DNA from: a virus
Taxonomy: Duplodnaviria; Heunggongvirae; Uroviricota; Caudoviricetes
Length of the DNA stretch: 64,000 nucleotides
Virus record (IMG/VR): IMGVR_UViG_3300043119_000732
Direction: 5' to 3' (one strand)
The translations under genes were made by a program, and so were the position numbers. Of this stretch, positions 25,455 to 55,643 are shown piece after piece (the stretch's first letter is position 1; each line of letters opens with the position of its first letter). Below the pieces are notes generated by a model. It saw nothing but the letters and a program-made list of their open reading frames with translations. It was not told where the DNA came from and made no database searches.

Positions 25455-25460
25455 CTTTAT

Positions 25461-38168: not shown

Positions 38169-38170
38169 TT

Positions 38171-38682: not shown

Positions 38683-40212
38683 ATGGCAACTAAAAAAACA
38701 ATCAAAAAGACAGCTCCTAAGCAAAACGCACTTATCAGTGCTTTAACTACAGGAGATATCAAGACGCATAATGGTGCGGTAAGTCATTCGACTACTGGTA
38801 CTTCTTTGCTCGATTTTTTTGGTAAAGGTGGTTCAATGCGTTCACAACCAGATGATGCATCTATTACACTTTTCCGCTCCGCTTATAATGAGGATAAGAC
38901 TATCGCTCTTAAGATTCTCTTCTATCTAGTAGATGTACGTGAAGGTCAAGGTGAGCGTAAGCTCTTCCGTAACTGCTTTAAGTGGCTTGCGCAAAACGAT
39001 GAGAAAGTAGCTAAGAACCTCTTGATCCAGATCCCTGAGTTTACTCGTTGGGACAACGTACTTGAGACGCTTGAAGGTACATCTCTTGAAAAAATCGCAC
39101 TTAAATTTGTTGCTGATAAACTTATTGAAGATGCATCTGAAAAGAATCCTTCACTATGTGCTAAATGGGCACCAAGTGAACAGGCTTCATCTTCTGTAAC
39201 CAAACGTCTTGCAAAGAAAGTACGTACTACTTTAGATTACTCTCCAAAGCAATATCGTAAGCTTCTATCAGCTCTTCGTAAAAAGATCGATGTAGTGGAA
39301 CGCAAAATGTGTGTAGGTGAATGGGACAAGATCAATTATCCTGCGGTACCTTCAAAGGCTGCAAGCACTTACCGTAAAGCATTCAAAGAACATGACGGTG
39401 ACCGTTACTCAAAGTTTTTAACTAATGTCGAGAAAGGTGAAGAAAAGATTAACGCTTCAGTATTGTACCCATATGATATTGTACGTTCAGTTCGTAATAT
39501 ACGGTCCGTAGATCGTACTCTAGAGGCCCAATGGAAGGCCTTACCAGATTATCTTGCCGGTAATAAGCATAATGGTATTGTTGTAGCTGACGTTTCAGCT
39601 TCAATGGACTCTTGTAACTATTATAATGCTAATATTGGTAATAACATAGCACCTATTGATGTTGCTGTATCAATTGCAATTTATTTTGCTGAACGAAACG
39701 AAGGTGCATTCAAAGATCATTTTATGATCTTCTCCCATAATGCTAAACTTTTAAAGATTACAGGTACAAGTCTAATACAAAATGTAACTGATGTTCTTGG
39801 TAGACGTGAGGTTGCTAATACTAATCTACAATCTGTATTTGATCTTATACTTGATAAAGGCGTAAGTAATAAAGTGCCGCAATCTGAAATGCCATCCCAT
39901 GTATATATTATCTCAGATATGCAATTTGATTGTGCTACCGGGCCAGACTCTCTTAATAGCGGTGAAGTAACTAATCATGCTGCTATTAAGGCAAAGTACG
40001 CTGCAGCTGGTTACAACGTGCCTCAAATTGTATATTGGAATGTTAACTCTTATAGTGATGTACCGGTTAAATATGACGATAAAGGTACTTGCTTAGTATC
40101 AGGCTGTTCACCTTCAATCTTGAAGAGTGTTTTGTCTAACAAATCAACAACACCTTATAACATGATGATCGATACAGTTTGTAGTGACCGTTATGAAGTA
40201 ATCAAAGCTTAA
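38683..40212 (+). CDS. TROVE-domain / VWA protein, Ro60 (Rsr)-like
   Basis: 509 aa. The N-terminal LLDFFGKGGSMRS resembles the Ro60 FG-x-GG-T/S motif. Central VVADVSASMDS is a DxSxS MIDAS motif. The architecture matches Ro60 (about 530 aa torus plus vWA). Confidence 0.5.
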   Translation: MATKKTIKKTAPKQNALISALTTGDIKTHNGAVSHSTTGTSLLDFFGKGGSMRSQPDDASITLFRSAYNEDKTIALKILFYLVDVREGQGERKLFRNCFKWLAQNDEKVAKNLLIQIPEFTRWDNVLETLEGTSLEKIALKFVADKLIEDASEKNPSLCAKWAPSEQASSSVTKRLAKKVRTTLDYSPKQYRKLLSALRKKIDVVERKMCVGEWDKINYPAVPSKAASTYRKAFKEHDGDRYSKFLTNVEKGEEKINASVLYPYDIVRSVRNIRSVDRTLEAQWKALPDYLAGNKHNGIVVADVSASMDSCNYYNANIGNNIAPIDVAVSIAIYFAERNEGAFKDHFMIFSHNAKLLKITGTSLIQNVTDVLGRREVANTNLQSVFDLILDKGVSNKVPQSEMPSHVYIISDMQFDCATGPDSLNSGEVTNHAAIKAKYAAAGYNVPQIVYWNVNSYSDVPVKYDDKGTCLVSGCSPSILKSVLSNKSTTPYNMMIDTVCSDRYEVIKA

Positions 40213-40220
40213 TTAGATTT

Positions 40221-40256
40221 GAGGAGAGCTATACTATAGCTCTCCTCTTTTATTTT
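40221..40256 (+). terminator. rho-independent terminator
   Basis: gaggagagctatactatagctctcctc followed by ttttatttt. Confidence 0.75.
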
Positions 40257-40481
40257 ATGAAAATCGCCAGAGTTACAGATGAAGAATTGATAGAGTTACA
40301 AGAAGATATTGTCTTTAACCCTGATAGATATACAGGTCGTATTGGTAGACTCCTTCAGAAGACAATATACGGTTATCAAGTATTGGTAGATCATGCTGCT
40401 GATAAATCAAAAGACTATCTCGAATACAGATCAGATATTAAGGAATTCTTAGATTCAAATAAAAATGTGTTTAACAGTTAA
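40257..40481 (+). CDS. hypothetical protein
   Basis: 74 aa ORF. Confidence 0.35.
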   Translation: MKIARVTDEELIELQEDIVFNPDRYTGRIGRLLQKTIYGYQVLVDHAADKSKDYLEYRSDIKEFLDSNKNVFNS

Positions 40482-40647
40482 AGAACAACTTATAGAATAC
40501 TGCTACAAGTTTAAAAAAGACTATATCTATGATGTAGGTTCGCGTGAGTTTGATTGTTTAATTTCTCTTATTGATGATAACGAGGTGACTTCGTTTGAAG
40601 ATTTAGCTAAGTATGGGATGGATTATGGTATGCACTATGAAAAGTAA
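40465..40647 (+). CDS. hypothetical protein
   Basis: 60 aa ORF. Confidence 0.3.
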   Translation: MCLTVKEQLIEYCYKFKKDYIYDVGSREFDCLISLIDDNEVTSFEDLAKYGMDYGMHYEK

Positions 40648-40969
40648 AATAATTGAACAGTATACTGATAAAGAGCTTGATGAAAGCTTTTGTAGAGATG
40701 TAGCTAATATACCTTACGAGTATACTGAGCAGGTAGATATAGACTCTCGATGTATATATGAATTTCCTCCACCTAGCTTTTGCCATAACTATATCAGTGG
40801 TGAATTATGGAAGCAGTTAAATGTCTGTGAAAGATATGAGTTTTTCAAGCAAGGGAAGTTGTATACAATAAGACTGTACGAAAATAGTAATGTTTATGAA
40901 TATCAACATGAAACTGTAGGTAGAGCTGTTGTAATTGCATTACTTAAAAAAGAATATAAAATCGCATGA
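40637..40969 (+). CDS. hypothetical protein (start moved to internal ATG to limit overlap)
   Basis: ORF 40613..40969; the MKSKIIEQ… start at 40637 is preferred. Confidence 0.35.
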   Translation: MKSKIIEQYTDKELDESFCRDVANIPYEYTEQVDIDSRCIYEFPPPSFCHNYISGELWKQLNVCERYEFFKQGKLYTIRLYENSNVYEYQHETVGRAVVIALLKKEYKIA

Positions 40970-42000
40970 AAGAAGCACTTTATTATAATCAAGTAACACT
41001 TATACCTAATAAGTGTGTAGTTAACTCACGCTCTCAATGTGATACTACGATTAATTTTTGTGGTTACATATTTAACTTACCAGTAGTACCTGCAAACATG
41101 GCATCGGTTATCGACATAAATAATGCTAAATGGTTAGCGTTTAATAAGCATTTCTATATCTATCATCGCTTTGGAGATACTCGTGATTTTATTAGTCGTT
41201 CTAATTTTGAGCGTTGGCCTCTCGTAAGTATTTCTATTGGTGTACAACCTAGTGATACTATGCTAATTGATTGGCTTGAGATTACTAAATATAAAGTAGA
41301 CTTTATTACAATTGATATTGCTCACGGTTTTGCAGAGTCTGTTGCAGTGATGGTTAGGTATATCAAAAATAAGTTACCCAATACTAAAGTAATCGCTGGT
41401 AATATATGGGGTGATAAACAGTCTATAGAATTTCTACAAAACGCAGGAGCAGATGCAATTAAAGTAGGTTTAAGTTGCGGTGCAGGATGCTCTACATTTA
41501 ATGAGACTGGATTTGGTTCACCAATGTTTAGTGCTGCTTTTGAAGCTGGTGTTAACGCAAAGGTACCAGTAATTCTTGATGGAGGTATTAGACATAATGG
41601 AGATATTGCAAAAGCTATTGTTGCATTCTTATCCAATCAGTTTCAAGCTGTTTATGGAAATCCTTTTAAATGCGGTAATAAACAATGGAGAGAACCACTT
41701 AACGTTCCGATGATTATGGCTGGTAGTATCTTTGCTGCTTGTATTGATGCTCCTGGTGATGATATTATTATTAATGGAAGAGTATGGAAAAATTACTACG
41801 GATCAGCTTCTGCTGAATCCAAAAAGAAGACCGGTCAAGAAGTAAAACACGTTGAAGGTAAGAGCATTGTTCTTGAGGGTAATAGTTTAACTTATGCAGA
41901 AAAATATGATCAAATTAAAGATGCTGTTCAAAGTCAAATTTCATATGCAGGTGGTAATGATTTAACTGCTTTAAAAGATGTTCAATGGAGAAAGATATGA
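40966..42000 (+). CDS. IMP dehydrogenase / GMP reductase family protein (TIM barrel, no obvious CBS pair)
   Basis: KVGLSCGAGCSTFNETGFGSPMFSAA…ILDGGIRHNGDIAKAI matches the IMPDH/GuaC catalytic-loop and phosphate-binding motifs. Confidence 0.6.
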   Translation: MKEALYYNQVTLIPNKCVVNSRSQCDTTINFCGYIFNLPVVPANMASVIDINNAKWLAFNKHFYIYHRFGDTRDFISRSNFERWPLVSISIGVQPSDTMLIDWLEITKYKVDFITIDIAHGFAESVAVMVRYIKNKLPNTKVIAGNIWGDKQSIEFLQNAGADAIKVGLSCGAGCSTFNETGFGSPMFSAAFEAGVNAKVPVILDGGIRHNGDIAKAIVAFLSNQFQAVYGNPFKCGNKQWREPLNVPMIMAGSIFAACIDAPGDDIIINGRVWKNYYGSASAESKKKTGQEVKHVEGKSIVLEGNSLTYAEKYDQIKDAVQSQISYAGGNDLTALKDVQWRKI

Positions 42001-42392
42001 GTAATAGAGAAATTAAGTTTAGAGTATGGGATGTACCTGCACATCAATACACTGATAATTACCATATTACAATAGATCTAAATGGGTCTGTGTATAACCT
42101 ACAAAACGGGGCAGGTGGTAAAGACTATATTCTACAACAATATACTGGATTTAAGGATAAGAACGATATAGAGATATATGAAGGTGATATAGTAAAATTT
42201 ACTGAAAAGCTTCATGAACATGGAGATATACAAACATTAGTTGCAGAAGTTATTTATGATAGCAAAAATGCAGCATTTGGTGTAGGTAAAAATAATGTAG
42301 TGTGGAATTGGTTTACTGATTACGGTATTTCGAATATCGAAGTTATAGGTAATAAATTCGAAACACCTGAAAGAATGTTGATTTCAAAATAA
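41985..42392 (+). CDS. YopX-family phage protein
   Basis: The N-terminal REIKFRVWD is typical of YopX-domain proteins. Confidence 0.55.
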   Translation: MEKDMSNREIKFRVWDVPAHQYTDNYHITIDLNGSVYNLQNGAGGKDYILQQYTGFKDKNDIEIYEGDIVKFTEKLHEHGDIQTLVAEVIYDSKNAAFGVGKNNVVWNWFTDYGISNIEVIGNKFETPERMLISK

Positions 42393-42411
42393 ACTAATTT
42401 AAAATTTTAAT

Positions 42412-42867
42412 ATGGCAATAAACATCGACGATATTCAAGAAGTACTAATTCAAAACGGAATTGAACCAGAAAAGCGCTCTGCTATCATTAAAGATATCAA
42501 AGAGGCTGCTGATGCAGAAAAAGAAGATAAAGAGAAGGCACCTAGACAGAAGTCTAAGTTTACTGTATTAATTCGTGGTGATGCTGAAGTAGCGAAAGTT
42601 ATTCAACAAGCCTGGATTGTACAGACACCAGAAGAGCAAGATGACTCTACTTTAGTAGATAGACTCAAGATTGCTACAGCAAAACACAATAATAACCTTA
42701 AGAAAAAGAAGTGGGCTGTTGAGCTTTGGAGAGATGTATTTGCTTATATTAAGTCAAAGACTACTAAAGAGCAAGAAGTAAACGTAAAAATTAAAACAAA
42801 AGAACCTGTACGGGTAATTGTACTTGAAACCGAAAAGGTAATTGAAAATGACCAAAAGACCAACTAA
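42412..42867 (+). CDS. hypothetical protein
   Basis: 151 aa, K/E-rich. Confidence 0.4.
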   Translation: MAINIDDIQEVLIQNGIEPEKRSAIIKDIKEAADAEKEDKEKAPRQKSKFTVLIRGDAEVAKVIQQAWIVQTPEEQDDSTLVDRLKIATAKHNNNLKKKKWAVELWRDVFAYIKSKTTKEQEVNVKIKTKEPVRVIVLETEKVIENDQKTN

Positions 42868-43324
42868 GCTTGATAAAGAGATTTTAGAGCCTGCAATGAA
42901 AGAGCTCTATACAAAGCATCTAGCAAAACTCGATGACTTTGGAGAAGAAGATGAAGCTATTGACTCACTAATTAAATCTTACCATCAAGATGCATATGAT
43001 TTTGCCAAGGCATTAGATTACGATGGTTGGATTGTAGATTTTCCATTATGCGAGGCACTTGACAATGGTTGGTCTATTTTAGACAAACATTATAAACAAG
43101 CGCTCGAACAATGGTTTATTAATAACCCTATACAACCATATACTGTTGGTACAAAGGTAGTCGTTACCAGACCGTATAGTAGTGTTAAGGGTAAAAAATG
43201 CATCATTACTTCGTTTAAAGAAAATACTGGTGAATATACAGTACGTGAAGAAGAAAAATACAAACAAGGTGATTCTGGTGGTTATGTATTAAATCACGAA
43301 GACCTACAAATAGTTAATGGCTAA
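42842..43324 (+). CDS. hypothetical protein
   Basis: 160 aa ORF. Confidence 0.4.
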   Translation: MKMTKRPTKLDKEILEPAMKELYTKHLAKLDDFGEEDEAIDSLIKSYHQDAYDFAKALDYDGWIVDFPLCEALDNGWSILDKHYKQALEQWFINNPIQPYTVGTKVVVTRPYSSVKGKKCIITSFKENTGEYTVREEEKYKQGDSGGYVLNHEDLQIVNG

Positions 43325-43473
43325 ACAAAAGAAAAGCTATTACAAATCTAAAAAAGAAAAGGATTATGAGGCTGCTCAATCAAAGGCAGCCTCAGTACCT
43401 TCTTTATCTGCAGTACCTGAAAAACGCAGACATATTATACGTAAACATGCAGATGGTACAAATATAAACATAT

Positions 43474-43857
43474 ATGAGTCGTATATCGATACCTAAAATT
43501 CGCATTCGTAAAATCGTACATAATAGTCACTGTGAATATCTCGGTGAGTTTGATTGCACTGATATCTTATATTTCTTTAAGAGGTATACCGGTATATGGT
43601 TTAAAGAGCATACCGATGTAGAAGGTACTATTACAGATGATGTGATTGGTAAATATATAGATAGTTCAGATGAATTTAATATTCTTGAAGAAGATTATTT
43701 TATAATCGGTTATCCTGTTACACATATGTATGAGGGTAAGTTAACAGATTCGTCTAGTATGTTTATCCAGCATCCAGACGAATATGGTTTTGAAACAATA
43801 AAGGACAGTAAAGGAACAGAATTAACATACAACTATGCAAACAAAAGTAAGATTTAA
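43474..43857 (+). CDS. hypothetical protein
   Basis: 127 aa ORF. Confidence 0.4.
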   Translation: MSRISIPKIRIRKIVHNSHCEYLGEFDCTDILYFFKRYTGIWFKEHTDVEGTITDDVIGKYIDSSDEFNILEEDYFIIGYPVTHMYEGKLTDSSSMFIQHPDEYGFETIKDSKGTELTYNYANKSKI

Positions 43858-44248
43858 ACAGAACGCTATTCATATACCACATAAGAACTTATTCTTAGTT
43901 TCTTATCATCGGCATGACTTTATAACATATACACACGATGATGGTAGATATATATTTATAGATGGTGGTAGTGATTATATCCGTGTTGGTGGTAACTTGG
44001 AACTATATAAAGAAGGTATAGTTATGAACTGGTGTACTGATAGTGATTTTAACAATCTAGATGAAATACGTACTATGGCACTTTGGGGTACTCGTGGTAA
44101 AGATGGTAAACAACCTCTAGCTTGGAAACCTATCTTTACGTTTAAAAGAGCACATCTACGTGCAATAAAGAAGAATTGCGCACATTATATGCACCCTATT
44201 TTATTAGATGTGGTTAAATATTGGCTGAAAATGAAGTATAGCGAATGA
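43835..44248 (+). CDS. hypothetical protein
   Basis: 137 aa ORF. Confidence 0.4.
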   Translation: MQTKVRFKQNAIHIPHKNLFLVSYHRHDFITYTHDDGRYIFIDGGSDYIRVGGNLELYKEGIVMNWCTDSDFNNLDEIRTMALWGTRGKDGKQPLAWKPIFTFKRAHLRAIKKNCAHYMHPILLDVVKYWLKMKYSE

Positions 44249-44781
44249 ACATCTTTTGTATACACGAAGAGGCTGCTAAGTCAGCATACGAATTACCAGA
44301 TCAGTATATCAAATCAAAAATGATTATTGAATCTGCTATAATGTTACAGCATTGTTTTTCTAATGAAACGCTTGCATCCTCTTCATGCCCAAGAACTCTT
44401 GCAGGTAGTGTAAGAAAAAGTGGAGGAGGATATTATAACCATCCATGTTCTAAATGGGTTAGAGAGTCGGTAACAAATTATGTATGGCTTTGCTTACATG
44501 CAAAAGCTATGTGTGATGAGAGGCGTAATAGATTTCCCAATAGTAAAAAGCACTTTACAGAAGATTTTATAGATTGGTGCTTATGTAATAATACATCAAC
44601 AAAATTATCTGACAAAGGGTTGACTCCTTTCGCTGAAGCATTTACTAAAAATTCTAAATGCACATCATTACCTACCTTTAAAGATTCTAATACTCAGCAA
44701 AGATATCGCCTATACATTAAACACGATAAAGAATTTGCTACCTGGACAAATACTACAACGCCTGAATGGTACTTGAACTAA
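44245..44781 (+). CDS. hypothetical protein (weak resemblance to pyrimidine-dimer DNA glycosylase N-terminus)
   Basis: 178 aa. The ELPDQ… segment is loosely like T4 endonuclease V ELADQHL. Low confidence. Confidence 0.3.
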   Translation: MNIFCIHEEAAKSAYELPDQYIKSKMIIESAIMLQHCFSNETLASSSCPRTLAGSVRKSGGGYYNHPCSKWVRESVTNYVWLCLHAKAMCDERRNRFPNSKKHFTEDFIDWCLCNNTSTKLSDKGLTPFAEAFTKNSKCTSLPTFKDSNTQQRYRLYIKHDKEFATWTNTTTPEWYLN

Positions 44782-44815
44782 AAAGTACTCAACGGAACTT
44801 AATTAACATATACAC

Positions 44816-45871
44816 ATGATCTTCAACGAACAACCTGAAGTTTTTACAGACTTCCCTACTCTGTTACCTATCGATGCCGCTAAAATTGACAGTCATGAGT
44901 TTCCTGCTTTATTCTTAATTTCTAGTTTAACAAATAAGTTTGCAAGTTCTTATAAGCCAGATACAAAGTATAAGGTTAAACTATTAGATTATCTTTGTGA
45001 GCGAGCTAAGCTTATTAGATATCGTGTATATGAACAAGATGGAAGAGATAACTCATACTACTTTCACTATAAAAACTATATCATCTACGTAGGTGCAAAT
45101 GATGAAATTACTATAAACTTATTTTTCGCAACAGATGTTATACCAGATATAACCGAATTTGATAAGTTTAAGATTACTGATAACTCATCTAGAGTTTCGA
45201 TTCTAATTAAAGGTGCGTATGGACTCGAAGCACGCTCTATCAAAGTTGATCCGATTAAAGTAGAAGATATTAATATCAACTATGGTCCTAACTTTAATAA
45301 GATTCATGAGAATGTAGTCTCAAAGCTTAATAAGCCGCAGTCTTCTATTATGTTCTTCCATGGACCTCCAGGATGCGGTAAAAGCTCATATATCAAGTAT
45401 CTGACCAATGCTGTTGATAAAGAGTTTATTTTTATTCCAGTAGCATTTGCAGGTGAATTGAGCTCTCCAGACTTTATGTCTCTTCTACTCGAACATAAAG
45501 ATTCGGTACTTATTCTTGAAGATTCAGAGAAGGTTGTGCAGAGTCGTGAACAAGATGATCATAATGTAAGCACTGTATCTACTTTGCTTAATATCTCTGA
45601 TGGTATTCTTGGATCGATGCTCAATATTAAAATTGTTGCTACGTATAACGGTGATAAAGATAAGGTTGATAAAGCACTTCTTCGCCCAGGACGTCTTGCA
45701 ATCGACCATACTTTTGGTAAACTCGATGCTGCTACTGCAACTAAACTTGCAAAGTCGCTTGGTAGAGATGTAGTCTTTGATAAAGAAATGACTCTTGCTG
45801 AAGTGTATAATCTCGGTGATGATACTGGATACAAAGAGAAGCAAGTTCGTAAGATTGGATTCGGTGTTTAA
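44816..45871 (+). CDS. AAA ATPase (classic AAA clade)
   Basis: Walker A FHGPPGCGKSS. Walker B ILEDSE. Second region of homology ALLRPGRL. Confidence 0.7.
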   Translation: MIFNEQPEVFTDFPTLLPIDAAKIDSHEFPALFLISSLTNKFASSYKPDTKYKVKLLDYLCERAKLIRYRVYEQDGRDNSYYFHYKNYIIYVGANDEITINLFFATDVIPDITEFDKFKITDNSSRVSILIKGAYGLEARSIKVDPIKVEDININYGPNFNKIHENVVSKLNKPQSSIMFFHGPPGCGKSSYIKYLTNAVDKEFIFIPVAFAGELSSPDFMSLLLEHKDSVLILEDSEKVVQSREQDDHNVSTVSTLLNISDGILGSMLNIKIVATYNGDKDKVDKALLRPGRLAIDHTFGKLDAATATKLAKSLGRDVVFDKEMTLAEVYNLGDDTGYKEKQVRKIGFGV

Positions 45872-46844: not shown

Positions 46845-47249
46845 ATGAGTAAAACCAAACAAGTAATTATCATTAGAAAAGACCTCAAAATGCGTAGAGG
46901 TAAAGAAATATCTCAGGGTGCACATGCTTCTATGGGTGTTTTTACCAAACGAGCTAATTTTCAGGAAGATCCTTTTAACACATCTTGTCACTACATGATT
47001 TGTGATATAGATAGAGCGATGAGAGCCTGGTTAGAAGGTTCATTTGCAAAAGTAGTTGTAACAGTTCAAACCGAGCAAGAACTTATTGATCTTGAAATTA
47101 AAGCTAAAGAAGCTAAAATACCTTGCTGTCTAATTGAGGATAACGGTATTACAGAATTTAATGGAGTTAAAACTAAAACTGCATTAGCAATTGGGCCTTG
47201 GTGGCCTGAAGAAATTGATAAGATTACTGGAACATTACCATTATATTAA
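46845..47249 (+). CDS. pth2: peptidyl-tRNA hydrolase, PTH2 family
   Basis: VIIIRKDLKMRRGKEISQGAHAS matches the PTH2 signature (V…R.DL.MgkGK.aaQ..HA). 134 aa, the typical PTH2 size. Confidence 0.7.
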   Translation: MSKTKQVIIIRKDLKMRRGKEISQGAHASMGVFTKRANFQEDPFNTSCHYMICDIDRAMRAWLEGSFAKVVVTVQTEQELIDLEIKAKEAKIPCCLIEDNGITEFNGVKTKTALAIGPWWPEEIDKITGTLPLY

Positions 47250-47673: not shown

Positions 47674-48414
47674 ATGAAGCTACACGAACTACTCGCAGTC
47701 GAGAATTCTCTCGAAAATCAGACAAACAAGGTACGTAACGAACTCGCCACGACCTTTGAAAAGAAGCGTCATCTCTTCGAAGAGAAGAAGATTGTATTTA
47801 CACCTTCCGGTGAAGGTCAGTCAACGGTCGAGTCTCAGCTTGATATTCAGACCACTGTTGATAAGGAATTGAAGCTTATTGCTGGGTTTATTACCAAGGC
47901 TCTCGATGCTTCGTATCAGGTTGCTGAAACTAATACTGCAGCTCGCGGTGATATTACTCTTGAAGATGGCACTGTAATTGCTAAGGATGTACCTGCTACC
48001 GCTCTTCTTGAACTTGAGAAGCGTCTAATTGAGATTAATTCTTTAATCCTTTCTATTCCTACTCTCGACCCTGCTAAAGGATTTACACATGATGCTGCTC
48101 GTGGTGGTGGTATCTATCAAGCCCGTACAATTAATAAGACTCGTACGAAGAAGGAAAAGTCAGTAATCGTTCTATATCCTGCGACCGACAAGCACCCTGC
48201 CCAGACTCAGCTTGTTGATGAAGACAAGGTTATCGGTAATATTCAAGAGCAAGAGTGGTCTGGTCTTATTACTCCTGCGCAAAAGTCTGAGTATCTTAGT
48301 CGAGTTGATACTTTGACTCGTGCAGTTAAGCAGGCCCGTTCTCGTGCTAACGATACCGAGGTCGATAAGAATAAGAAGATCGGTGCTAAGTTGATTAGCT
48401 ATATCTTCAACTAA
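47674..48414 (+). CDS. hypothetical protein (GC-richer, highly charged)
   Basis: 246 aa with elevated GC. Followed by a long structured 3' region and a strong terminator. Confidence 0.45.
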   Translation: MKLHELLAVENSLENQTNKVRNELATTFEKKRHLFEEKKIVFTPSGEGQSTVESQLDIQTTVDKELKLIAGFITKALDASYQVAETNTAARGDITLEDGTVIAKDVPATALLELEKRLIEINSLILSIPTLDPAKGFTHDAARGGGIYQARTINKTRTKKEKSVIVLYPATDKHPAQTQLVDEDKVIGNIQEQEWSGLITPAQKSEYLSRVDTLTRAVKQARSRANDTEVDKNKKIGAKLISYIFN

Positions 48415-48727
48415 AACAATTTCGGGTGGCTCCTTCGGGAGTATCCAGGCTCAAAGTGAAATCCGGGTCTAAACCGGTCATGCTCAAGTTCAAACTAAGG
48501 CTATTCACTCGAGGCTCAAAACCCGACTAAGAAGGTTCTTTAAAAGATAGTGTCTATTTAAACCAGATGCGGCTGTTCAAATCAGCTCCTGACCCCCAAT
48601 TTCCGGTTAGTATATATGGTCAGGTAACTTAGTGGTAGAGTGCTGGTATTAAGCTAAAAACACAAAGCATTTTAAAGAACAGAGCTAAAAAACGCTCTTT
48701 GTCACATATTATGAAAATATGACAACA

Positions 48728-48769
48728 GGCAGGGCATTCGCGAGGTAGCGGGCCCTGCCACCTTTTTTT
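48728..48769 (+). terminator. rho-independent terminator (possible attenuator for the downstream prs-like gene)
   Basis: ggcagggc-attcgcgaggtagcg-ggccctgcc followed by T8. Lies 63 nt upstream of the prs-like start. Confidence 0.75.
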
Positions 48770-48832
48770 ATAATTCAGCTTACTCTGTGTTAGTTTTAAC
48801 TAATCCAAGGGAACAATATTACAATATCTTAC

Positions 48833-49699
48833 ATGAACTTTCGAACATATAAAGGAACACATGAACTTGTGATTAAGCAAGCTACCTTCCCAGGTGGTGA
48901 GGTTCTTATACAAACTCAACCAAACTTTGGGTTTTTTAATACGCAAGATACAATTCGTATTGAAGCGCGTATTCGTAATAGCGATGACTTATTTGCCCTT
49001 GCTCTCATTAAGGATGCTATCGAGAATGAACAGATAACTTATGGTGATAAATCGAGTATTGAGCTTATTATACCTTATGTACCATATGCCCGACAAGATC
49101 GTACATGCTGTAAAGGTGAACCACATAGCCTAAAGGTATTTGCTAAATTTATTAATAATTTGAATTTTGATCGTGTAATCGTATGTGATCCTCATAGCGA
49201 TGTTACTGGTGCATTAATCGATCGAGTTAAAATTATCGACCAGGTACAAATAATTAATGATTTTACAGCGTTTTGTAAACGTGTATTACAGGGTGTACTA
49301 TTTGTAAGTCCAGATGCAGGTGCAAATAAAAAGACTGCAAATGTTGCTAAGTATTTTGACCATATTCGATTTATTCGTGCTGATAAACTTCGTGACCTTG
49401 CAACAGGTAAAATTATTGAAACCTCTATATTTGCGGATGATCTTAATGGTGCTGATATAGTAATTGCAGATGATATTTGCGATGGTGGTCGCACCTTTAT
49501 CGAACTCGCTAAATCTCTTAAGAAAAAGAATGCAGGTAATGTGATTCTATACGTTACTCATGGTATTTTTAGTCAAGGTGTTGATACTCTATTTGCAAAT
49601 GGTATAGATGAGATTTATACAACTAATAGCTACAGTACCGATTTAAATATCGAAGAGAAGAATAAAAATAAGTTATATATCCATAATCTTACATTTTAA
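48833..49699 (+). CDS. prs: ribose-phosphate pyrophosphokinase (PRPP synthetase) family protein; Prs or the phage Adps-type homolog
   Basis: IPYVPYARQDR matches the Prs motif PYFGYARQDR. IVIADDICDGGRTF is the PRPP-binding loop (DDxxDTGGT-like). Confidence 0.75.
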   Translation: MNFRTYKGTHELVIKQATFPGGEVLIQTQPNFGFFNTQDTIRIEARIRNSDDLFALALIKDAIENEQITYGDKSSIELIIPYVPYARQDRTCCKGEPHSLKVFAKFINNLNFDRVIVCDPHSDVTGALIDRVKIIDQVQIINDFTAFCKRVLQGVLFVSPDAGANKKTANVAKYFDHIRFIRADKLRDLATGKIIETSIFADDLNGADIVIADDICDGGRTFIELAKSLKKKNAGNVILYVTHGIFSQGVDTLFANGIDEIYTTNSYSTDLNIEEKNKNKLYIHNLTF

Positions 49700-49763
49700 T
49701 GAAAATAACTGATAAATTTATATTCTTTGATATAGATGTTAGACGTAAAATTACACAAAATTT

Positions 49764-50651
49764 ATGACCAAAAGCGACCCATATCTTTCTAATGAACTTT
49801 GTATAGAACGTCTATACAAAGAATATCAAAAGCATAATAGACTCATCATAGCAGTTGATTATGATGATACCTTATATGATTGGCACGGTAAAGGCACGAC
49901 ACATGAGTTTGTAATTGATCTCATGAAGAGATGCAAAGCTCTTGGATTTTACGTAGTGATATTTACTGCTAGTAAAGTAGAGAGACATACATCGATCAGA
50001 GTTTATTGTGCTGAAAAGGGTATCGAGATAGACTCTATCAATAAGAATCCTATCGCTCTCCCATATGGAAACGAAGGTAAGATATATTATAACATCTTCC
50101 TTTGTGACCGTGCCGGTCTTCGCTCTAGCTATTATATACTAGAGCAGGTTGTTACTCGAATCGAAAAAGAGAGACGCGAAAAGGTTTATCTTAAACCTAC
50201 AGATATCTATAATGGTCATCTCTCTGATCTCGATTCTATTTTCTTAGCTGGTTCTATATCTAATGCAGTCGATTGGCAACAAATTGCTGCTGATAAACTT
50301 ACTCCTCATTTCGATGTATTTAATCCTCGTCGATATGACTTTAACGTACTTGATAGCACGATGGAAGAAGAACAAATTAAATGGGAGTTCGAACATTTAG
50401 TTGCAGCCAAGCAAGTAATATTCTGGTTTAGTAATGAAACACTAGCACCGATTTCTTTATATGGACTTGGATTGTTTGGATATAAAGCACACTTTATTGG
50501 CATACACCCAGAATTTAAACGTAAACGTGATGTAGAAATTCAAACCAAACTCAGAAACCCAGATGCGAAGATATTCTACGATCTTAATGAAATGTTAGAT
50601 GCTGTTATTGCATCCAAAGATGTACTACCAGGAAATAAATTAAAATTATAA
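49764..50651 (+). CDS. fusion protein: HAD-like phosphatase N-domain plus nucleoside 2-deoxyribosyltransferase-like C-domain
   Basis: N-terminal IAVDYDDTLYD is HAD motif I (DxDxT). The C-terminal FLAGSISNAVDW…FDVFNP…VIFWF resembles the nucleoside-deoxyribosyltransferase Rossmann-like family. Confidence 0.5.
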   Translation: MTKSDPYLSNELCIERLYKEYQKHNRLIIAVDYDDTLYDWHGKGTTHEFVIDLMKRCKALGFYVVIFTASKVERHTSIRVYCAEKGIEIDSINKNPIALPYGNEGKIYYNIFLCDRAGLRSSYYILEQVVTRIEKERREKVYLKPTDIYNGHLSDLDSIFLAGSISNAVDWQQIAADKLTPHFDVFNPRRYDFNVLDSTMEEEQIKWEFEHLVAAKQVIFWFSNETLAPISLYGLGLFGYKAHFIGIHPEFKRKRDVEIQTKLRNPDAKIFYDLNEMLDAVIASKDVLPGNKLKL

Positions 50652-50658
50652 TACAATT

Positions 50659-51711
50659 ATGAGCCATTATATTATCACCGGTTCCAGTGTTTCAGTCAAA
50701 AACGAAGCTGCTCTTTCGATTGAAAAGAAACTTCCTGTCGGAAACTATGCCGTAAAGGAACACCCTCAGACCGGGCTTTACCTTGAAATAGTTGATCGAT
50801 TTAAAATGCCAAGCCACATTTTTGGCAATACTCCTGATCGTTCTAAACGTATTATCAATACGTTTCTTGACCGCGAATGCAGCACAGGAGTTTTACTCGC
50901 TGGAGAAAAAGGCAGTGGTAAAACTCTTCTTGCTAAGAGTCTTTCGATTGAGTGTGCTAAACTTGGTTATCCTACCATAATCATTAATAACGATTGGTGC
51001 GGTGATGAGTTTAATCAGCTTATTCAGAATATTGATGAACCTGCAGTTGTAATGTTTGATGAGTTTGAGAAGATATACGATGACGAAAAACAAGAGCAAG
51101 TATTGACGCTTCTTGATGGGGTATACCCTACGAAGAAGCTTTTTGTAATTACTTGTAATGATAAATGGCGTATTAACCAGCATATGCGCAATCGCCCTGG
51201 TCGTTTGTATTATATGCTCGATTATCGTGGACTTGATCAAAACTTCATCGTCGAGTATTGTAATGCGATGCTTAATGAGAAGAAACACATTCAGCTTATC
51301 TGTCGTATCTCTGGGTTGTTTGATTCATTCAACTTCGATATTCTTAAAGCACTTGTCGAAGAGATGAATCGATATAAAGAAGACCCTATCAAAGCTCTTG
51401 AGATGCTCAATGCTAAACCTGGTAGTGATAGTGAAGCTAACTTTAGTATTACGTTTGCTGTTAAAGGTAAAATTCAAGATAAAAACGCAATTTATCCGAA
51501 TATTATCGAAGGTCTACCGCTTGGTAAGACCCACCATTTTACAGTTTATAGTAAAGCTGACAAAAAACCTGACCGCCGTGTTGAAGTTGGTGAAGATAAT
51601 ATTATCAATGTTGATACCGAAAAAGGTATTTTTATATATAAACTAGATGATATGACGTTTACCATGACGCGTGATAACGGCAATCAGATTGACTTCTATA
51701 GACATCTATAA
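50659..51711 (+). CDS. AAA+ ATPase (MoxR/CobS-like), paralog of the 35344 gene
   Basis: Walker A LLAGEKGSGKT. Walker B VVMFDEFE. Also NRPGRLYY. Confidence 0.6.
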   Translation: MSHYIITGSSVSVKNEAALSIEKKLPVGNYAVKEHPQTGLYLEIVDRFKMPSHIFGNTPDRSKRIINTFLDRECSTGVLLAGEKGSGKTLLAKSLSIECAKLGYPTIIINNDWCGDEFNQLIQNIDEPAVVMFDEFEKIYDDEKQEQVLTLLDGVYPTKKLFVITCNDKWRINQHMRNRPGRLYYMLDYRGLDQNFIVEYCNAMLNEKKHIQLICRISGLFDSFNFDILKALVEEMNRYKEDPIKALEMLNAKPGSDSEANFSITFAVKGKIQDKNAIYPNIIEGLPLGKTHHFTVYSKADKKPDRRVEVGEDNIINVDTEKGIFIYKLDDMTFTMTRDNGNQIDFYRHL

Positions 51712-51834
51712 AGTCACGCTTGGGTAGTTGATTCCAAATGAACTTTAATAAAATAATTTTGTTAGATCGATGCGTATATATGAATCATTCAAGTGATTTG
51801 ATTCTGTAAAAGCATCGAGACTCAACACAAACAT

Positions 51835-53421
51835 ATGAAAACTAATCCGCTAAATCTAATCGATGGCTATAAAGCCGACCATCGTCGTCAATATCCAGTA
51901 GGTACTGAGTTGGTTTACTCTAACTTTACCCCGCGTTCTACTAGACACGCTGCAAAAGTAAAAGGAGTTGATAATAAAGTAGTATTCTTTGGCCTTCAAT
52001 ATCTTCTAAAGTGGTTGCTTATTGATACCTTTAATCAGGAGTTCTTCAATCAGCCTAAAGAAAAGGTTATAAAGAAGTATAAGCGCCGTCTTGATAACTA
52101 CCTAGGTACTGGAGCTGTACCTATTGATCATATCGAACAGTTACACGACATCGGTTATCTTCCAATCTCTATTAGTGCCCTACCTGAGGGTGCTGTAGTT
52201 GATGAGAAGATTCCGGTGTTTGTTATCGAAAATACCACCTCAGGTGCTTTTTGGCTTACTAATTATCTCGAGACTATCTTGAGTAATATGATTTGGAAGC
52301 CTTGTACCAGTGCTACAACCGCTCGTAAGTATCGTATTCTTCTTAAGAGATATGCAAAGCTTACCGGTGCTGATGTTAATTTCGTTGACTTCCAAGCTCA
52401 CGATTTTAGCTTCCGTGGTATGTCTAGCCCTCAGGACGCGGTAATGTCTGGTGCTGCTCACCTTGCAGCTGGTAATCTCGGTACCGATACGATCCCTGCG
52501 ATCGATCTACTCGAAGATTACTATAATGCTAACTCTGATAAGGAGCTAGTCGGTTGTTCGGTACCTGCGACTGAACACTCTGTAATGTGTGCTGGTGGTC
52601 AAGGTGATGAACTCTATACCTTTAAACGTCTTATTACTGAGTTATATCCACAAGGTATTGTCTCAATTGTATCCGACACTTGGGACTTCTGGCAGGTTAT
52701 CACAGTATTCTTACCTGCTCTTAAGAACGAGATTCTCGCTCGTAAAGGTGGACCTGTTGGAGATAAGGTTGTAATCCGACCTGACTCTGGCGATCCTATT
52801 CGAATCATCTGTGGTTACAATGAAGACGAAGTCATTCGAAAGGACAGTAAGATTTTCCTTGACGATAACACATCACTGATTAAAGCGATACCAGGAAAAG
52901 AGATCACCGAAGCTGAATTCAAAGGAGCTATCCAGTGCCTTTGGGACACGTTCGGTGGTACTGTAACTGAGAAAGGATTCAAAGTTCTTGACTCTCACAT
53001 TGGTTTGATTTATGGTGACTCGATTACACTCGAGCGCGCCTATCAAATCATGGAAGGGTTGATGAAGAAAGGGTTCGCAAGTACTAACGTCGTTCTCGGT
53101 GTTGGTTCTTATACCTATCAGTATTGTACTCGTGATACTCTTGGATTTGCAATGAAGGCAACATCGGTAACCGTAAATGGTGAAGAGCGTGCGATCTTTA
53201 AGGATCCTAAGACTGATGGTGGTATGAAGAAGTCTGCTAAGGGTTATCTTGCAGTGTTTAAGAACGACAAAGGTGATTATGTCCTCCACGACGAAGTTAC
53301 CAAGGTCGTTGCTGATAACTGCGATCTTAAAGAGGTCTTCCGAGATGGTAAGCTGTTGATTGATTATACTCTAGCCGATATTCGAGCGCGAGTAAATGAG
53401 AGCATTAATAAAGCTCTCTGA
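51835..53421 (+). CDS. nadV: nicotinamide phosphoribosyltransferase (NAMPT/NadV) family
   Basis: Collinear with NAMPT along its length: DGYKADHRRQYP, FGLQYLLK, AFWLTNYLETIL, DFSFRGMSS, VPATEHSVM, IVSDTWDFW, VIRPDSGDP. Confidence 0.85.
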   Translation: MKTNPLNLIDGYKADHRRQYPVGTELVYSNFTPRSTRHAAKVKGVDNKVVFFGLQYLLKWLLIDTFNQEFFNQPKEKVIKKYKRRLDNYLGTGAVPIDHIEQLHDIGYLPISISALPEGAVVDEKIPVFVIENTTSGAFWLTNYLETILSNMIWKPCTSATTARKYRILLKRYAKLTGADVNFVDFQAHDFSFRGMSSPQDAVMSGAAHLAAGNLGTDTIPAIDLLEDYYNANSDKELVGCSVPATEHSVMCAGGQGDELYTFKRLITELYPQGIVSIVSDTWDFWQVITVFLPALKNEILARKGGPVGDKVVIRPDSGDPIRIICGYNEDEVIRKDSKIFLDDNTSLIKAIPGKEITEAEFKGAIQCLWDTFGGTVTEKGFKVLDSHIGLIYGDSITLERAYQIMEGLMKKGFASTNVVLGVGSYTYQYCTRDTLGFAMKATSVTVNGEERAIFKDPKTDGGMKKSAKGYLAVFKNDKGDYVLHDEVTKVVADNCDLKEVFRDGKLLIDYTLADIRARVNESINKAL

Positions 53422-53428
53422 TTATATA

Positions 53429-53463
53429 GGCTCAGATCATAAAAGGTCTGAGCCTTTTTTTTT
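53429..53463 (+). terminator. rho-independent terminator
   Basis: ggctcagatcataaaaggtctgagcc followed by T9. Confidence 0.8.
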
Positions 53464-53484
53464 GGAACTAAAATATCATTCTGT

Positions 53485-53691
53485 ATGTTAATATTTCTAT
53501 CTATTTTATTTCTTCTTATATGGAGTATAGTTGGAGTTTGTATACTAAAGCATCTGTCTAATACAAAACCATTCCCTACAAACACTTTACAGTTTTTAGC
53601 TGTATTTATCGCATGCGGCCCTGTTGCATGGGTACTACTTATTATCTGCCTTGTTATTGACATAGCAACTAAAGGACAATACCTTGAATAA
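53485..53691 (+). CDS. small membrane protein
   Basis: 68 aa with two transmembrane segments. Confidence 0.4.
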   Translation: MLIFLSILFLLIWSIVGVCILKHLSNTKPFPTNTLQFLAVFIACGPVAWVLLIICLVIDIATKGQYLE

Positions 53692-54082
53692 CCTCGATCG
53701 ATTTAATACTCCAGTAGTAACTGGTAACTATAAAACATTGAATGATACTGTAAAGTCTTTTGGATGTAAAAACATTCAATTTAGTATCTTTGATACAGTA
53801 TCATACGGTGATGGCGCGGGTCAAGAATGGATAATTATATATCCAGATATTACTTCAAGTCAACCTGTATTCAAAGGTGAATGTAGATTTTGTGTTGATT
53901 ACTGGAGAATATCTGAGCGGCCTATATACTTTACTTTAGAAAACCCTACTTGGAAAGATATTATAATAGAGTTAGATAATATTATGAAGCAAGGCGATGG
54001 TTGTGGTATCTTTCTAGAGAATATTAACGTTAGAAAAGATAAATTTGGATTACAATATTATGAATTTGTAATAGGAAGCTAA
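53684..54082 (+). CDS. hypothetical protein
   Basis: 132 aa ORF. Confidence 0.4.
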   Translation: MNNLDRFNTPVVTGNYKTLNDTVKSFGCKNIQFSIFDTVSYGDGAGQEWIIIYPDITSSQPVFKGECRFCVDYWRISERPIYFTLENPTWKDIIIELDNIMKQGDGCGIFLENINVRKDKFGLQYYEFVIGS

Positions 54083-54083
54083 T

Positions 54084-54338
54084 ATGACAAAACAAGAATT
54101 TGAGCGAGCCTTGATATTAGACTATCTGGCTAACAGAGAGAATGCGCTAGTATTCTCTATATACGCTAACTTTAAAATAATTTATATTCAAGTACTTGAA
54201 ACGTATGTAGGTATAATGATGAGTGATTTTAATAACATAACGAAAAGCTATACATGTAGTATTGAAGTATTAGATTCTAAAGGTAAAATTGACTTTGATA
54301 TTGCATACACAAAATTAGAAAGTATGATCAATGAGTGA
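54084..54338 (+). CDS. hypothetical protein
   Basis: 84 aa ORF. Confidence 0.35.
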   Translation: MTKQEFERALILDYLANRENALVFSIYANFKIIYIQVLETYVGIMMSDFNNITKSYTCSIEVLDSKGKIDFDIAYTKLESMINE

Positions 54339-55080
54339 TATCTATACTATTACACACCCTGAAAATGATATATTCTTTGTAAGTGATTGCCACTTTCATC
54401 ATGATAAAGACTTTGTATATAAACCAAGAGGTTATACTTCTTGTAATGACGCACTTGAAGGTATAATCGGTAAATGGAATGAAACATGTACTTATGACTC
54501 TATAGCTTTTCATCTTGGAGACTTTGTATTTGGTGATCCAGATGGTAAGAAGATTCAAAATCTATTTAGACGTCTAAAATTTCATACTCTTTTTCTTCTA
54601 CCTGGTAACCATACATCAGGTTGGAGGCAGATGTATAAAACTAATAAGCTTAAGCTTTACCCATATATTGCACCTGAAGTGGATATCTTTCCATTGGTTA
54701 CTGAGTTTGAAGGACGTAGAGTAATATATATACCAAACTATATTGAACTAAGGATAAATAAAGATACGCATATGGTATTGAGTCATTACCCTATTGGCTC
54801 TTGGAATTGTCAAAATAAAGGCTCTATTCATCTTTCTGGTCATTGTCATGGTAATTACCCTATATCAAATAAGAATACTGGTAACGGTAGACAACTTGAC
54901 GTTGGTATAGAATCATTTGGAAAGCCCATTAGTTTAACTGAAGTAAAAGCTCATCTCAAAAATAGACCACATGGTCTTGTAGATCATCACGGTAAAAGAG
55001 AAGGATTTACTTCTGAGTTTATGAACGGACCCGAAGACTCACCTTATAAAGACTACAACAACGATAAGAAAGTACTATGA
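54331..55080 (+). CDS. calcineurin-like metallophosphoesterase
   Basis: Motifs D-x-H (SDCHFHHD), GD (LGDFVFGD) and GNH (LPGNHTSGW). Confidence 0.65.
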   Translation: MSDIYTITHPENDIFFVSDCHFHHDKDFVYKPRGYTSCNDALEGIIGKWNETCTYDSIAFHLGDFVFGDPDGKKIQNLFRRLKFHTLFLLPGNHTSGWRQMYKTNKLKLYPYIAPEVDIFPLVTEFEGRRVIYIPNYIELRINKDTHMVLSHYPIGSWNCQNKGSIHLSGHCHGNYPISNKNTGNGRQLDVGIESFGKPISLTEVKAHLKNRPHGLVDHHGKREGFTSEFMNGPEDSPYKDYNNDKKVL

Positions 55081-55643
55081 TCAAACTAACATTTCAAACT
55101 GAACATGATTATATTAAATTTGTAAGAACTGCTTGCATCTTTACTCATTTGCGTGCATATAATGCGGCAGCACATGTATGGAAAAAAGAAGATATGCCGT
55201 TTATCTCTAAGGTAGATGATAAGGAGTTCAGAGAAGAAAACTTCCAAGAGTGGAAGAAATGTTTTGAAGTTTATGAAAAGGCAGAGAAAGAATACGGAGA
55301 AGATATGTTTTATTGGAGAGGTATATTTGAGGGCTATTCTGCTGAAACACTTCTTTATAGTTTGGGATTGGTTTACAATCCAGACGAAGATGGTGATGGT
55401 GTTACATATATTGCTTCTGATTTGGATGTTGATTTAAATACGTTAAAGCGTAACGAGGATTTTCCAAAATCTTTTCCATGTGTAACTTGTGTTGAAGATG
55501 GTAATAAGTACGATGGTCTATTTATAAATCATGTTTATTTAGAAGACTTTAAAGACGAATCTCCACTCCTAAAATTTGATTGGCTTGAAGAGAATGTTCG
55601 AGCTTTTTGGGTTGAAGGTAAGGGTAGTTATTACGGAGGATAA
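55077..55643 (+). CDS. hypothetical protein
   Basis: 188 aa ORF. Confidence 0.4.
   Translation: MIKLTFQTEHDYIKFVRTACIFTHLRAYNAAAHVWKKEDMPFISKVDDKEFREENFQEWKKCFEVYEKAEKEYGEDMFYWRGIFEGYSAETLLYSLGLVYNPDEDGDGVTYIASDLDVDLNTLKRNEDFPKSFPCVTCVEDGNKYDGLFINHVYLEDFKDESPLLKFDWLEENVRAFWVEGKGSYYGG

Follow-up and report, generated by a model that had tools for sequence, protein, structure and literature searches.

We analyse here a gene cluster at positions 48833-53421 of the IMG/VR virus record IMGVR_UViG_3300043119_000732, a 64,000-nucleotide stretch of DNA from a tailed virus (Caudoviricetes) that is referred to below as the window. The cluster is likely an operon of the NARP1 type that carries extra pathway-associated genes. 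Depleting nicotinamide adenine dinucleotide (NAD+) ranks among the commonest anti-phage strategies of bacteria, and NARP1 (NAD+ reconstitution pathway 1) restores NAD+ by means of two enzymes, Adps and Namat. It is known from phages Bas63, SPbetaL1, Fado and ICP1 (Osterman et al. 2024; PMC12774641; PMC13586617) and, according to Osterman et al., who were the first to describe it, is present in about 4% of sequenced phages. The core of the locus, that is, NARP1 in one more phage, is therefore already known and ordinary. What is new is the architecture of the operon, which includes an AAA+ ATPase and a fusion of a HAD phosphatase domain with a degenerate glycosidase domain that resembles nucleoside 2-deoxyribosyltransferases (NDT).

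An open reading frame (ORF) check of the window finds five plus-strand ORFs at the coordinates given in an earlier note on this locus, which was made from the sequence alone. Profile searches back the family assignments of all five proteins, with E-values from 1e-6 to 1e-196. The genes, the two domains of the fusion protein and the flanking sites are as follows.

48833-49699, plus strand: predicted adps, 288 aa
49764-50651, plus strand: HAD::NDT-like fusion gene, 295 aa
49764-50201, plus strand: N-terminal, cap-less HAD domain of the BT_0820 type, with motif I D32-x-D34-x-T36, motif II T68, motif III K106 and motif IV D115
50220-50651, plus strand: C-terminal NDT/DNPH1-like domain (PF15891), with Gly234 at the invariant Glu of the family
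50659-51711, plus strand: AAA+ ATPase gene, 350 aa
51835-53421, plus strand: predicted namat, 528 aa
54331-55080, plus strand: calcineurin-like metallophosphoesterase gene, 249 aa
48744-48759: weak terminator-like hairpin, 5' of the promoter candidate
48796-48825, plus strand: sigma-70-like promoter candidate made up of TTAACT and TACAAT with a spacer of 18 nt, 8 nt 5' of the adps start codon, from a consensus scan only
53428-53455, plus strand: intrinsic-terminator-like hairpin with an 11-bp stem, 6 G-C pairs and a T8 tail, 7 nt 3' of the namat stop codon

Note that the promoter and terminator sites are consensus matches. The intergenic gaps from adps to namat measure 64, 7 and 123 nt, and the consensus scan finds no terminator-like site on the plus strand inside 48833-53421. 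Since a promoter-like site lies 5' of the genes, a strong terminator lies 3' and no plus-strand terminator lies between, we treat the four genes as one unit, an apparent single transcription unit covering 48833-53421.

The core enzymes

The protein encoded at 48833-49699 contains the motifs IPYVPYARQDR and DDICDGGRT, in which the earlier note had rightly seen PYxxYARQDR and DDxxDGGRT, the signatures of synthetases (Prs) of phosphoribosyl pyrophosphate (PRPP). It matches phrog_619 (3e-88, 296 bits) and TIGR01251 (139 bits), and it stays below the cut-off of every curated Prs equivalog model, for example by reaching 121 bits where the model requires 296. ICP1 Adps was the subject of a structural study in 2026 (PMC13586617), which describes what separates Adps from Prs: the PP loop is remodelled for the ATP donor, the catalytic Lys185 lies on a beta-hairpin, the acceptor residues are kept, and the C-terminal alpha11-alpha12 module is lost. 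In ICP1 Adps, the PP loop is Cys215-Ser220, with the family pattern DD[IL]C-x4-[ST]F compared with DDMIDTGGT in Prs; the acceptor residues are Arg87, His121, Asp161, Asp212, Asp213 and Asp216, and adenine is contacted by Phe18 and Phe92 (PMC13586617).

We aligned the window protein with the Adps of phages Gary and Bas61, E. coli Prs and an ICP1-like Adps in which every residue named in that study is present with the same numbering. The PP loop reads DDICDGGRTF in both the window and Bas61, and DDMIDTGGTL in E. coli Prs. The ICP1 residues map to F19, R87, H121, D161, K185, D213, D214, I215, C216, D217 and F222 of the window protein, among which K185, R87, H121, D161, D213, D214, D217 and F19 are conserved. 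With 288 residues compared with 315 in E. coli Prs, the protein stops 27 residues earlier and has no alpha11-alpha12 tail. Across the alignment, it is 36-42% identical to the Gary, ICP1-like and Bas61 Adps and 28% identical to E. coli Prs.

Prs-like proteins linked to Namat have a median size of 290 aa, and DDICDGGRTF is their commonest PP loop (19 of 57); those linked to Nampt, the PRPP-using nicotinamide phosphoribosyltransferase, have a median size of 320 aa and the loop DDLTESxGT[LM]. In a neighbour-joining (NJ) tree of 71 Prs-like proteins, calculated with capped distances, the clade that contains the window protein and the three reference Adps leaves out the contrast set, one true Prs (E. 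coli) and six Nampt-linked Prs-like proteins, in each of 100 bootstraps. Tests for an "exact clade" succeeded in 6/100 and 2/100 bootstraps; because the validated references are few and do not span the family, these tests were replaced by exclusion of Prs (100/100) and of the Nampt types (60/60). In addition, the Namat gene lies three genes 3' of adps, within the ten genes that the criterion for an Adps allows. By these signatures, the protein of 48833-49699 is a predicted Adps and not a housekeeping Prs.

The protein encoded at 51835-53421 is a homolog of nicotinamide phosphoribosyltransferase (NAMPT) that matches phrog_448 (2e-196) and the Pfam families PF04095 and PF18127. Among solved structures, the best matches, 9w5x and 9w5w, score 528 bits at about 57% identity, and mammalian enzymes, including human NAMPT, about 230 bits. 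The sequence of 9w5x/9w5w holds exactly the residues that PMC12774641 gives for SPbetaL1 Namat. That study ascribes the selectivity of Namat to a clamp, which consists of the SCH motif G-S-X-Phi-X-Phi-X-Phi-T-R-D, with an aromatic residue at positions 3 and 7, and the SCL loop, which supplies a stacking Arg, Lys or Tyr (Arg40 in SPbetaL1). The window protein has the SCH motif GSYTYQYCTRD, which agrees with the whole pattern and has Tyr at positions 3 and 7. Its SCL sequence TPRSTR aligns with TPRTSR(40) of SPbetaL1 and places an Arg on R40, in a loop that is 5 residues longer. The Nampt-like catalytic core (D13, Y15, F189, R192, D215, the His, R306, D308 and GD(A/S)) is fully kept, and an insertion of about 25 residues relative to SPbetaL1 lies near residues 337-361.

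Homologs in the phage collection form two bands of identity to the window protein, one at 35-55% and one at 27-31%. The KVP40-like and T4-like phage Nampts, which have the motif GGGLLQ..RD, are about 31% identical to it. Sixty GS-type sequences, including those of the window, SPbetaL1, Gary and Bas61, are monophyletic with respect to 15 GG-type Nampts in 60 of 60 bootstraps. Judged by clamp and tree, 51835-53421 encodes a predicted Namat.

Two Nmnat/NadM queries find no homolog of either enzyme in the 64-kb window. A Macro domain is likewise not found there, either by Pfam or by tblastn with Gary Adpp and the Macro protein of locus L022. Since the Prs-like protein is of the Adps type, the NAMPT homolog is of the Namat type, and no Nmnat, NadM or Macro homolog is present in the window, we read the core as NARP1. 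The earlier note had left the pair between classical NadV-based salvage and NARP1. The two comparisons that it proposed both favour the latter: the Prs-like protein falls on the Adps side of the phylogeny (100/100 NJ bootstraps), and the active site of the NAMPT homolog has the clamp motif, the SCL Arg and the entire catalytic core of the Namat pocket, in agreement with the 60/60 bootstraps. Clustering of both enzymes with housekeeping Prs and NadV, the contrary outcome that it named, was not found.

The unit resembles known NARP1 operons in that both enzymes carry the published signatures and lie in the same order on the same strand, in a unit that runs from adps to namat. It differs from them in that the two genes are 2.1 kb apart, with two extra genes between them; it also differs from ICP1 in the residue at the Phe92 position, which is Cys, and from SPbetaL1 in the 25-residue insertion in Namat. 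With NARP2, the Nampt and Nmnat pair of KVP40, it shares the purpose of NAD+ restoration and a homologous phosphoribosyltransferase fold. However, the window enzyme is of the Namat type, is about 31% identical to the KVP40-like Nampt, has another clamp motif and is accompanied by Adps, with no Nmnat in the window. No phage was found to encode both NARP1 and NARP2 (Osterman et al.).

The HAD::NDT-like fusion and its relatives

The earlier note described the product of 49764-50651 as a fusion of a HAD phosphatase and a deoxyribosyltransferase, and its family assignments are borne out by profile and fold matches. phrog_1238 covers residues 6-140, and PF15891 covers residues 158-241 (6e-16). An AlphaFold2 model calculated with 44 homologs (mean pLDDT 92, pTM 0.84) has two domains, which match BT_0820 (PDB 2obb), a HAD phosphatase, and BDI_0649 (PDB 4mcj), an NDT-like protein. 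These two are structural-genomics proteins from Bacteroidales that are separate there and fused in the window; no published function for either was found in the literature. The HAD tetrad (D32, D34, T36, T68, K106, D115) is invariant in 15 homologs. The characterised structural neighbours of this domain in a fold search include Pnkp 3'-phosphatases. One metagenomic HAD homolog, P0013 (267 aa), has an additional N-terminal domain of about 125 residues (...NEVFVFGDNRAALHGAGAA...GQTYGIATKD...).

In the C-terminal domain, the family named in the earlier note stands, and the catalytic Glu is missing. The fold search matches this domain to 4mcj, DNPH1 and NDT, with the glycosyl-enzyme structure 8qhr among the matches, and the fold is also shared with N-glycosidases and TIR NADases. 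The domain has the fold and the motif layout (hhGS loop and xELG nucleophile strand) of DNPH1/Rcl and nucleoside 2-deoxyribosyltransferases, but it is only 13-16% identical to them and lies in an NAD/ADP-ribose context instead of dNMP salvage. A Glu is present in the [TS]L[FYL]E[LY]G strand of 42 of 42 aligned homologs and of 4mcj, that is, BDI_0649, whereas the window has Gly234; this Glu stands at the nucleophile position of DNPH1 and the deoxyribosyltransferases. The Gly234 codon, GGA (window 50463-50465), is one base from GAA. With T231S and Y251F, which are further departures at nearly invariant positions, E234G makes up three changes in 38 conserved columns.

A sequencing error was considered as the origin of E234G and rejected: metagenomic contigs as long as 209 kb, from several independent samples, encode an identical fusion protein, and hence E234G is genuine. 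It is most simply explained by an NDT-like domain that is inactive yet under selection. That it is catalytically dead in this phage, perhaps kept as a ligand-binding or scaffolding module, seems to us an evenly balanced proposition. Two considerations stand on the other side: the remainder of the domain shares 88% identity with its nearest homolog, which has the Glu, and a domain with Gly234 might work by a different mechanism.

For the comparative analysis, IMG/VR was sampled three times, and the loci were scored with a tblastn panel (E <= 1e-5) within 8 kb for the HAD and NDT-like samples and within 7 kb for the Adps sample. The Adps sample consists of the 80 Adps nearest to that of the window. 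It contains a Namat-type enzyme in 77 loci, a phosphoesterase in 16, Macro in 12 (15%), NADAR in 6, HAD in 3, an NDT-like gene in 2 and AAA+ in 1, and 53 of the 80 are plain two-gene operons with a gap of less than 300 nt and nothing between the genes. The original NARP1 paper reports a Namat-type enzyme for 97% of Adps and a Macro share of 15%.

HAD relatives were confirmed in 307 stretches of IMG/VR, and the following counts refer to the best 80 of these. A NARP1 core gene lies near 55, and both Adps and a Namat-type enzyme lie near 47, typically as Adps-HAD-Namat; a Nampt-type enzyme is nearby in a single locus, an NDT-like gene in 13 and Macro in 2. For example, crAss-like Steigviridae have Namat-HAD-Adps with overlapping ORFs, Bacillus phage Crookii has Namat-HAD, and in a Lak megaphage the HAD gene adjoins a Prs-like gene. 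The HAD phosphatase is a specific and recurrent, although minority, accessory of NARP1, and the Adps-HAD-Namat class is apparently wider and undescribed. A search of the literature, within the searchable library, found no paper connecting HAD or PF15891 proteins with NARP1.

Homologs of the entire fusion occur in Adps-NADAR-fusion-Namat (L011) and in a locus cut at one end, (cut)-NADAR-fusion-kinase-AAA-Namat-...-phosphoesterase (L009). The kinase of L009 (positions 2201-3094, 297 aa) is of the Zeta-toxin/AAA_33 type and lies between the fusion and AAA+ genes of this NARP1 operon. Neither NADAR nor a zeta/AAA_33 kinase, which are present in these sister operons, was found in the window on search. 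Stand-alone homologs in L022, L023 and L024, which were picked solely on stretch size, all lie inside NARP1 operons: Adps-Macro-NDT-Namat in L022, Adps-x-NDT-...-Namat in L023, and Adps-NADAR-x-x-HAD-x-NDT-x-x-Namat in L024. The 147-aa Macro protein of L022 was identified as an Adpp homolog by BLAST. Comparison of L022 with L029 (Adps-HAD-NDT-Namat) indicates that HAD and Macro share a slot. Mutual exclusivity of the two was considered and not upheld, the pattern being suggestive and not significant, with co-occurrence in 0/80 loci of one sample and 2/80 of the other.

Among the best 80 of 118 NDT-like relatives, 47 have some NAD or ADP-ribose gene within 8 kb; Adps together with a Namat-type enzyme is found in 11, a Nampt-type enzyme in 18 and an NMN (nicotinamide mononucleotide) adenylyltransferase in 8. 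In Sinorhizobium phage Phosso, the NDT-like homolog ends a cluster of NadE, PncB, Nudix, NMNAT and nicotinamidase-like genes. The NDT-like family thus has a broader association, with the NAD metabolism of phages in general. A further set of IMG/VR loci (L053, L056, L057, L062, L065, L075-L078, L093 and L098) pairs a Nampt-type enzyme of the GG motif with a full-length Prs-like protein (DDLTESxGT[LM], about 320 aa), to which a PF15891 NDT-like gene is added, often with a Macro gene and a metallophosphoesterase as well. These loci are a separate class, which looks like an NAD module that is based on PRPP and has accessories of its own.

Proposed pathway and alternatives

In the core pathway, Adps would take the beta,gamma-pyrophosphate from ATP and place it on the 1'' hydroxyl of ADP-ribose (ADPR) to give ADPR-PP, and Namat would combine ADPR-PP with nicotinamide to give NAD+. 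The window enzymes very probably carry out these steps, given their homology to biochemically and structurally studied enzymes; closely homologous Adps has been shown to pyrophosphorylate ADPR, and closely homologous Namat to join ADPR-PP to nicotinamide. The restored NAD+ pool would counter host NADase defences (TIR, SIR2, SEFIR and similar).

The HAD domain would be an accessory phosphatase that recovers ADPR from a phosphorylated ADPR species on which Adps cannot act. Its candidate substrates are ADPR-1''-phosphate (ADPR-1''P), which is made by aRES-type NADases; the opened form of ADPR-cyclic phosphate, a spontaneous dead-end product of ADPR-PP (Osterman et al.); and 2'-phospho-ADPR from NADP+. 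Such a role would parallel that of Adpp, the Macro-domain ADPR-1''P phosphatase encoded between Adps and Namat in the NARP1-AP system of Vibrio phage Gary (bioRxiv 10.64898/2026.01.28.702374). Like NARP1-AP, the window has a phosphatase gene between adps and namat, and the logic is likely the same, namely the conversion of a non-canonical NAD+ breakdown product into ADPR. Unlike Adpp, the window phosphatase belongs to the HAD superfamily, with a DxDxT aspartyl-phosphate mechanism, and is fused to an NDT-like domain. Because the HAD gene sits at the slot of Adpp and is almost never found with PRPP-type Nampts, the domain most plausibly returns phosphorylated ADPR to the pathway, and this gene neighbourhood gives the proposed role roughly an even chance of being right.

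A more tentative proposal, which we consider possible rather than probable, is that the HAD phosphatase, often together with a PF15891 NDT-like glycosidase and NADAR, forms an undescribed NARP1 extension that makes ADPR from a non-canonical product. This product could be a phosphorylated ADPR other than that of aRES, or ADP-ribose on nucleobases or immune signals. The accessories of NARP1 described so far are the Macro phosphatase Adpp, which answers aRES, and the glycosidase RyDEP, which answers the cyclic ADP-ribose (cADPR) signals of Thoeris, and each of them exposed the matching host weapon or signal. The HAD gene in NARP1 operons poses a testable question: which phosphorylated ADP-ribose species is cleared, and which defence makes it? 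If the extension exists, hosts would have NAD+-consuming defences with products that are not yet known. The link of PF15891 to several types of phage NAD cluster suggests that an enzymatic step is missing from the picture of viral NAD metabolism.

Some observations weigh against a phosphatase dedicated to NARP1. In 25 of the best 80 of the 307 HAD loci, no NARP1 gene lies within 8 kb; the full-length fusion homolog in L010 has no NARP1 gene, neither Adps nor Namat, nearby; and in L122 (6523-8497) and L130 (9-4419), an Adpp-like Macro gene and a HAD gene both lie between Adps and Namat. Because both are present in the latter two loci, the Macro and HAD phosphatases perhaps have different substrates and are not simply interchangeable.

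The fusion might also act independently of NARP1, as a hydrolase of dNMP or nucleotide signals or as a polynucleotide 3'-phosphatase, and merely share an anti-defence island with it. L010 fits such a function, as do the Pnkp 3'-phosphatases among the structural neighbours of the HAD domain, the RNA-repair genes that often adjoin NARP1 loci, and the occurrence of the NDT-like family with Nampt-type, NMNAT or PncB clusters or with none. We nevertheless consider it rather improbable, given the 47 of 80 HAD relatives that lie between or beside both NARP1 genes, often in overlapping ORFs, compared with 1 of 80 with a Nampt-type enzyme. Moreover, this pattern spans unrelated lineages (crAss-like phages, Bacillus Herelleviridae and jumbo-size metagenomic phages), and no terminator separates the window genes.

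Another explanation gives the leading part to the NDT-like domain, which NADAR would join in sister phages: it would free ADPR from ADP-ribosylated nucleobases or cleave N-glycosidic, ADPR-derived immune signals, Adps and Namat would recycle the ADPR, and HAD would trim the phosphate. It draws on the NADAR genes that stand beside a fusion or NDT-like gene in the NARP1 operons L011, L009, L024 and L187, on the fold common to N-glycosidases and TIR NADases, and on RyDEP, an earlier case in which a glycosidase supplies NARP1. In this phage, however, the nucleophile Glu is gone and the window has no NADAR, and no biochemical data were found in the literature for any PF15891 member, so that we regard the explanation as unlikely.

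Classical PRPP salvage, in which the Prs-like protein gives PRPP, the NAMPT homolog gives NMN and an NMN adenylyltransferase is encoded elsewhere in the phage or host (the logic of NARP2, or of NadV-NadM-Prs), is very unlikely in view of the missing canonical PP loop and C-terminal module, the grouping with validated Adps in all bootstraps, the adenine clamp that the PRPP-preferring phage Nampts lack, the separate group formed by true Nampt-linked Prs-like proteins (DDLTES loops), the absence of Nmnat from the window, and the absence of phages with both pathways in Osterman et al. Several points nonetheless count in its favour or against an exclusive NARP1 core. The adenine contact Phe92 of ICP1 Adps is Cys in the window, the sole mismatch in the alignment. 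The 64-kb window is part of a genome of at least 209 kb, and Nmnat could lie elsewhere in it. Namat-type enzymes retain some PRPP-dependent NMN synthesis in vitro (PMC12774641). Finally, the closest match to the window Namat in the phage collection is a NadV, 55% identical, in L013 (CAKLQF020000015.1, "Acinetobacter phage MD-2021a"), where it belongs to the cluster prsA_2-nadV-nadM, which lies next to a bifunctional NMN adenylyltransferase. The clamp motif of this NadV, GSFTYNYLTRD, is of the Namat type. Since a Namat-type NadV here adjoins an NMN adenylyltransferase, the clamp signature alone does not prove exclusive use of ADPR-PP.

As for L013 itself, this "phage" record holds ABC transporter, AraC regulator and efflux genes and looks like a bacterial chromosome. 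In view of its NadV, one may ask whether ADPR-PP is the intermediate through which the classical NadV cluster of Acinetobacter acts; bacterial NARP1 homologs have been reported in published work.

Other genes of the locus and the source phage

The earlier note called the AAA+ ATPase MoxR/CobS-like and counted it in the NAD module, and we find support for neither statement. The protein matches PF00004 (5e-10, 40 bits) and phrog_2376 (2.5e-88), whereas AAA_5, the MoxR/dynein-type family, reaches 18 bits, under its cut-off of 22, and the nearest solved relatives are p97/Cdc48 D2 domains. By these matches, it is classed as a classical AAA protein and not as MoxR/CobS. Its closest relative, 48% identical over the full length, is from Microbacterium phage Pumpernickel (L021), where it is encoded within a tRNA array and close to an RtcB ligase. 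The homolog in Microcystis phage Mel-JY01 (L185) precedes an RNA ligase and a tRNA gene, and that in Yersinia phage fHe-Yen9-04 (L186) is flanked by tRNA genes. In Klebsiella phage KP13-26, which has NARP1, the homolog is about 60 kb from Adps. The gene adjoins namat in the window, L009 and L222, but a homolog is near NARP1 in 1/80 and near HAD in 1/80 of the sampled loci, and the comparative data give no tie to NAD metabolism. Membership in the pathway was therefore rejected, with homologs elsewhere found in tRNA arrays or by RNA ligases, and the ATPase is probably a co-transcribed, lineage-specific passenger that takes no part in the chemistry.

The neighbourhoods of the AAA+ homologs, with their tRNA arrays and RNA ligases, hint at a role related to tRNA or RNA repair. 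In fHe-Yen9-04, a gene annotated as "phosphoheptose isomerase" lies 1.4 kb downstream of the AAA+ homolog; phrog_1238 carries the same annotation in PHROGs, and the likeness is by annotation alone.

The metallophosphoesterase matches PF00149 and phrog_547 (2e-34), and its presence at 54331-55080 is as the earlier note described. Its proposed link with the module is reduced to a loose, recurrent neighbourhood, because the gene lies 3' of the strong terminator at 53428-53455 and thus outside the unit. L009 has the same synteny, including the phosphoesterase, and a homolog lies directly 5' of Adps in L187 and 1.1 kb 5' of Adps in phage Gary; in the Adps sample, the share of NARP1 loci with a homolog within 7 kb is 20%. 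Metallophosphoesterase genes are common in large phages, and they often accompany RNA-repair genes. As a lead only, the enzyme could open ADPR cyclic phosphate.

The source is a large, tRNA-rich myovirus. The window is AT-rich (28-47% G+C across 2-kb windows), and its genes for a baseplate wedge protein, for tail fibres and for virion proteins indicate a large tailed phage. A plus-strand array of 24 tRNA genes at 18922-26374 covers most amino acids, as is typical of large or jumbo phages. Megablast of 48500-55200 against 50,697 phage records gave no match, so that no close relative was found among them at the DNA level, and PADLOC gave no meaningful match for any protein of the module.

Just 5' of the module, the window encodes a PTH2-type peptidyl-tRNA hydrolase (PF01981, 2e-30) at 46845-47249 and a DUF7873 protein (9e-68) at 47674-48414. 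Farther upstream, the region 35344-45871 contains other auxiliary genes. An ATPase gene (phrog_1297) is followed there by that of a DUF2201 metallopeptidase-like protein; the region also encodes a phrog_850 RNA-binding protein, a protein of the IMPDH/GMP-reductase family (40966-42000) and another AAA protein (44816-45871). In the 418-nt gap 5' of adps, ARAGORN finds no tRNA, and there is no match to an Rfam family. The gap (window 48415-48770) folds with -106.5 kcal/mol (z = -3.9), and 0/100 shuffled sequences are equally stable. It contains the tRNA-like stretch TTAGTGGTAGAGTGCTGG and could correspond to a small RNA or a decayed tRNA.

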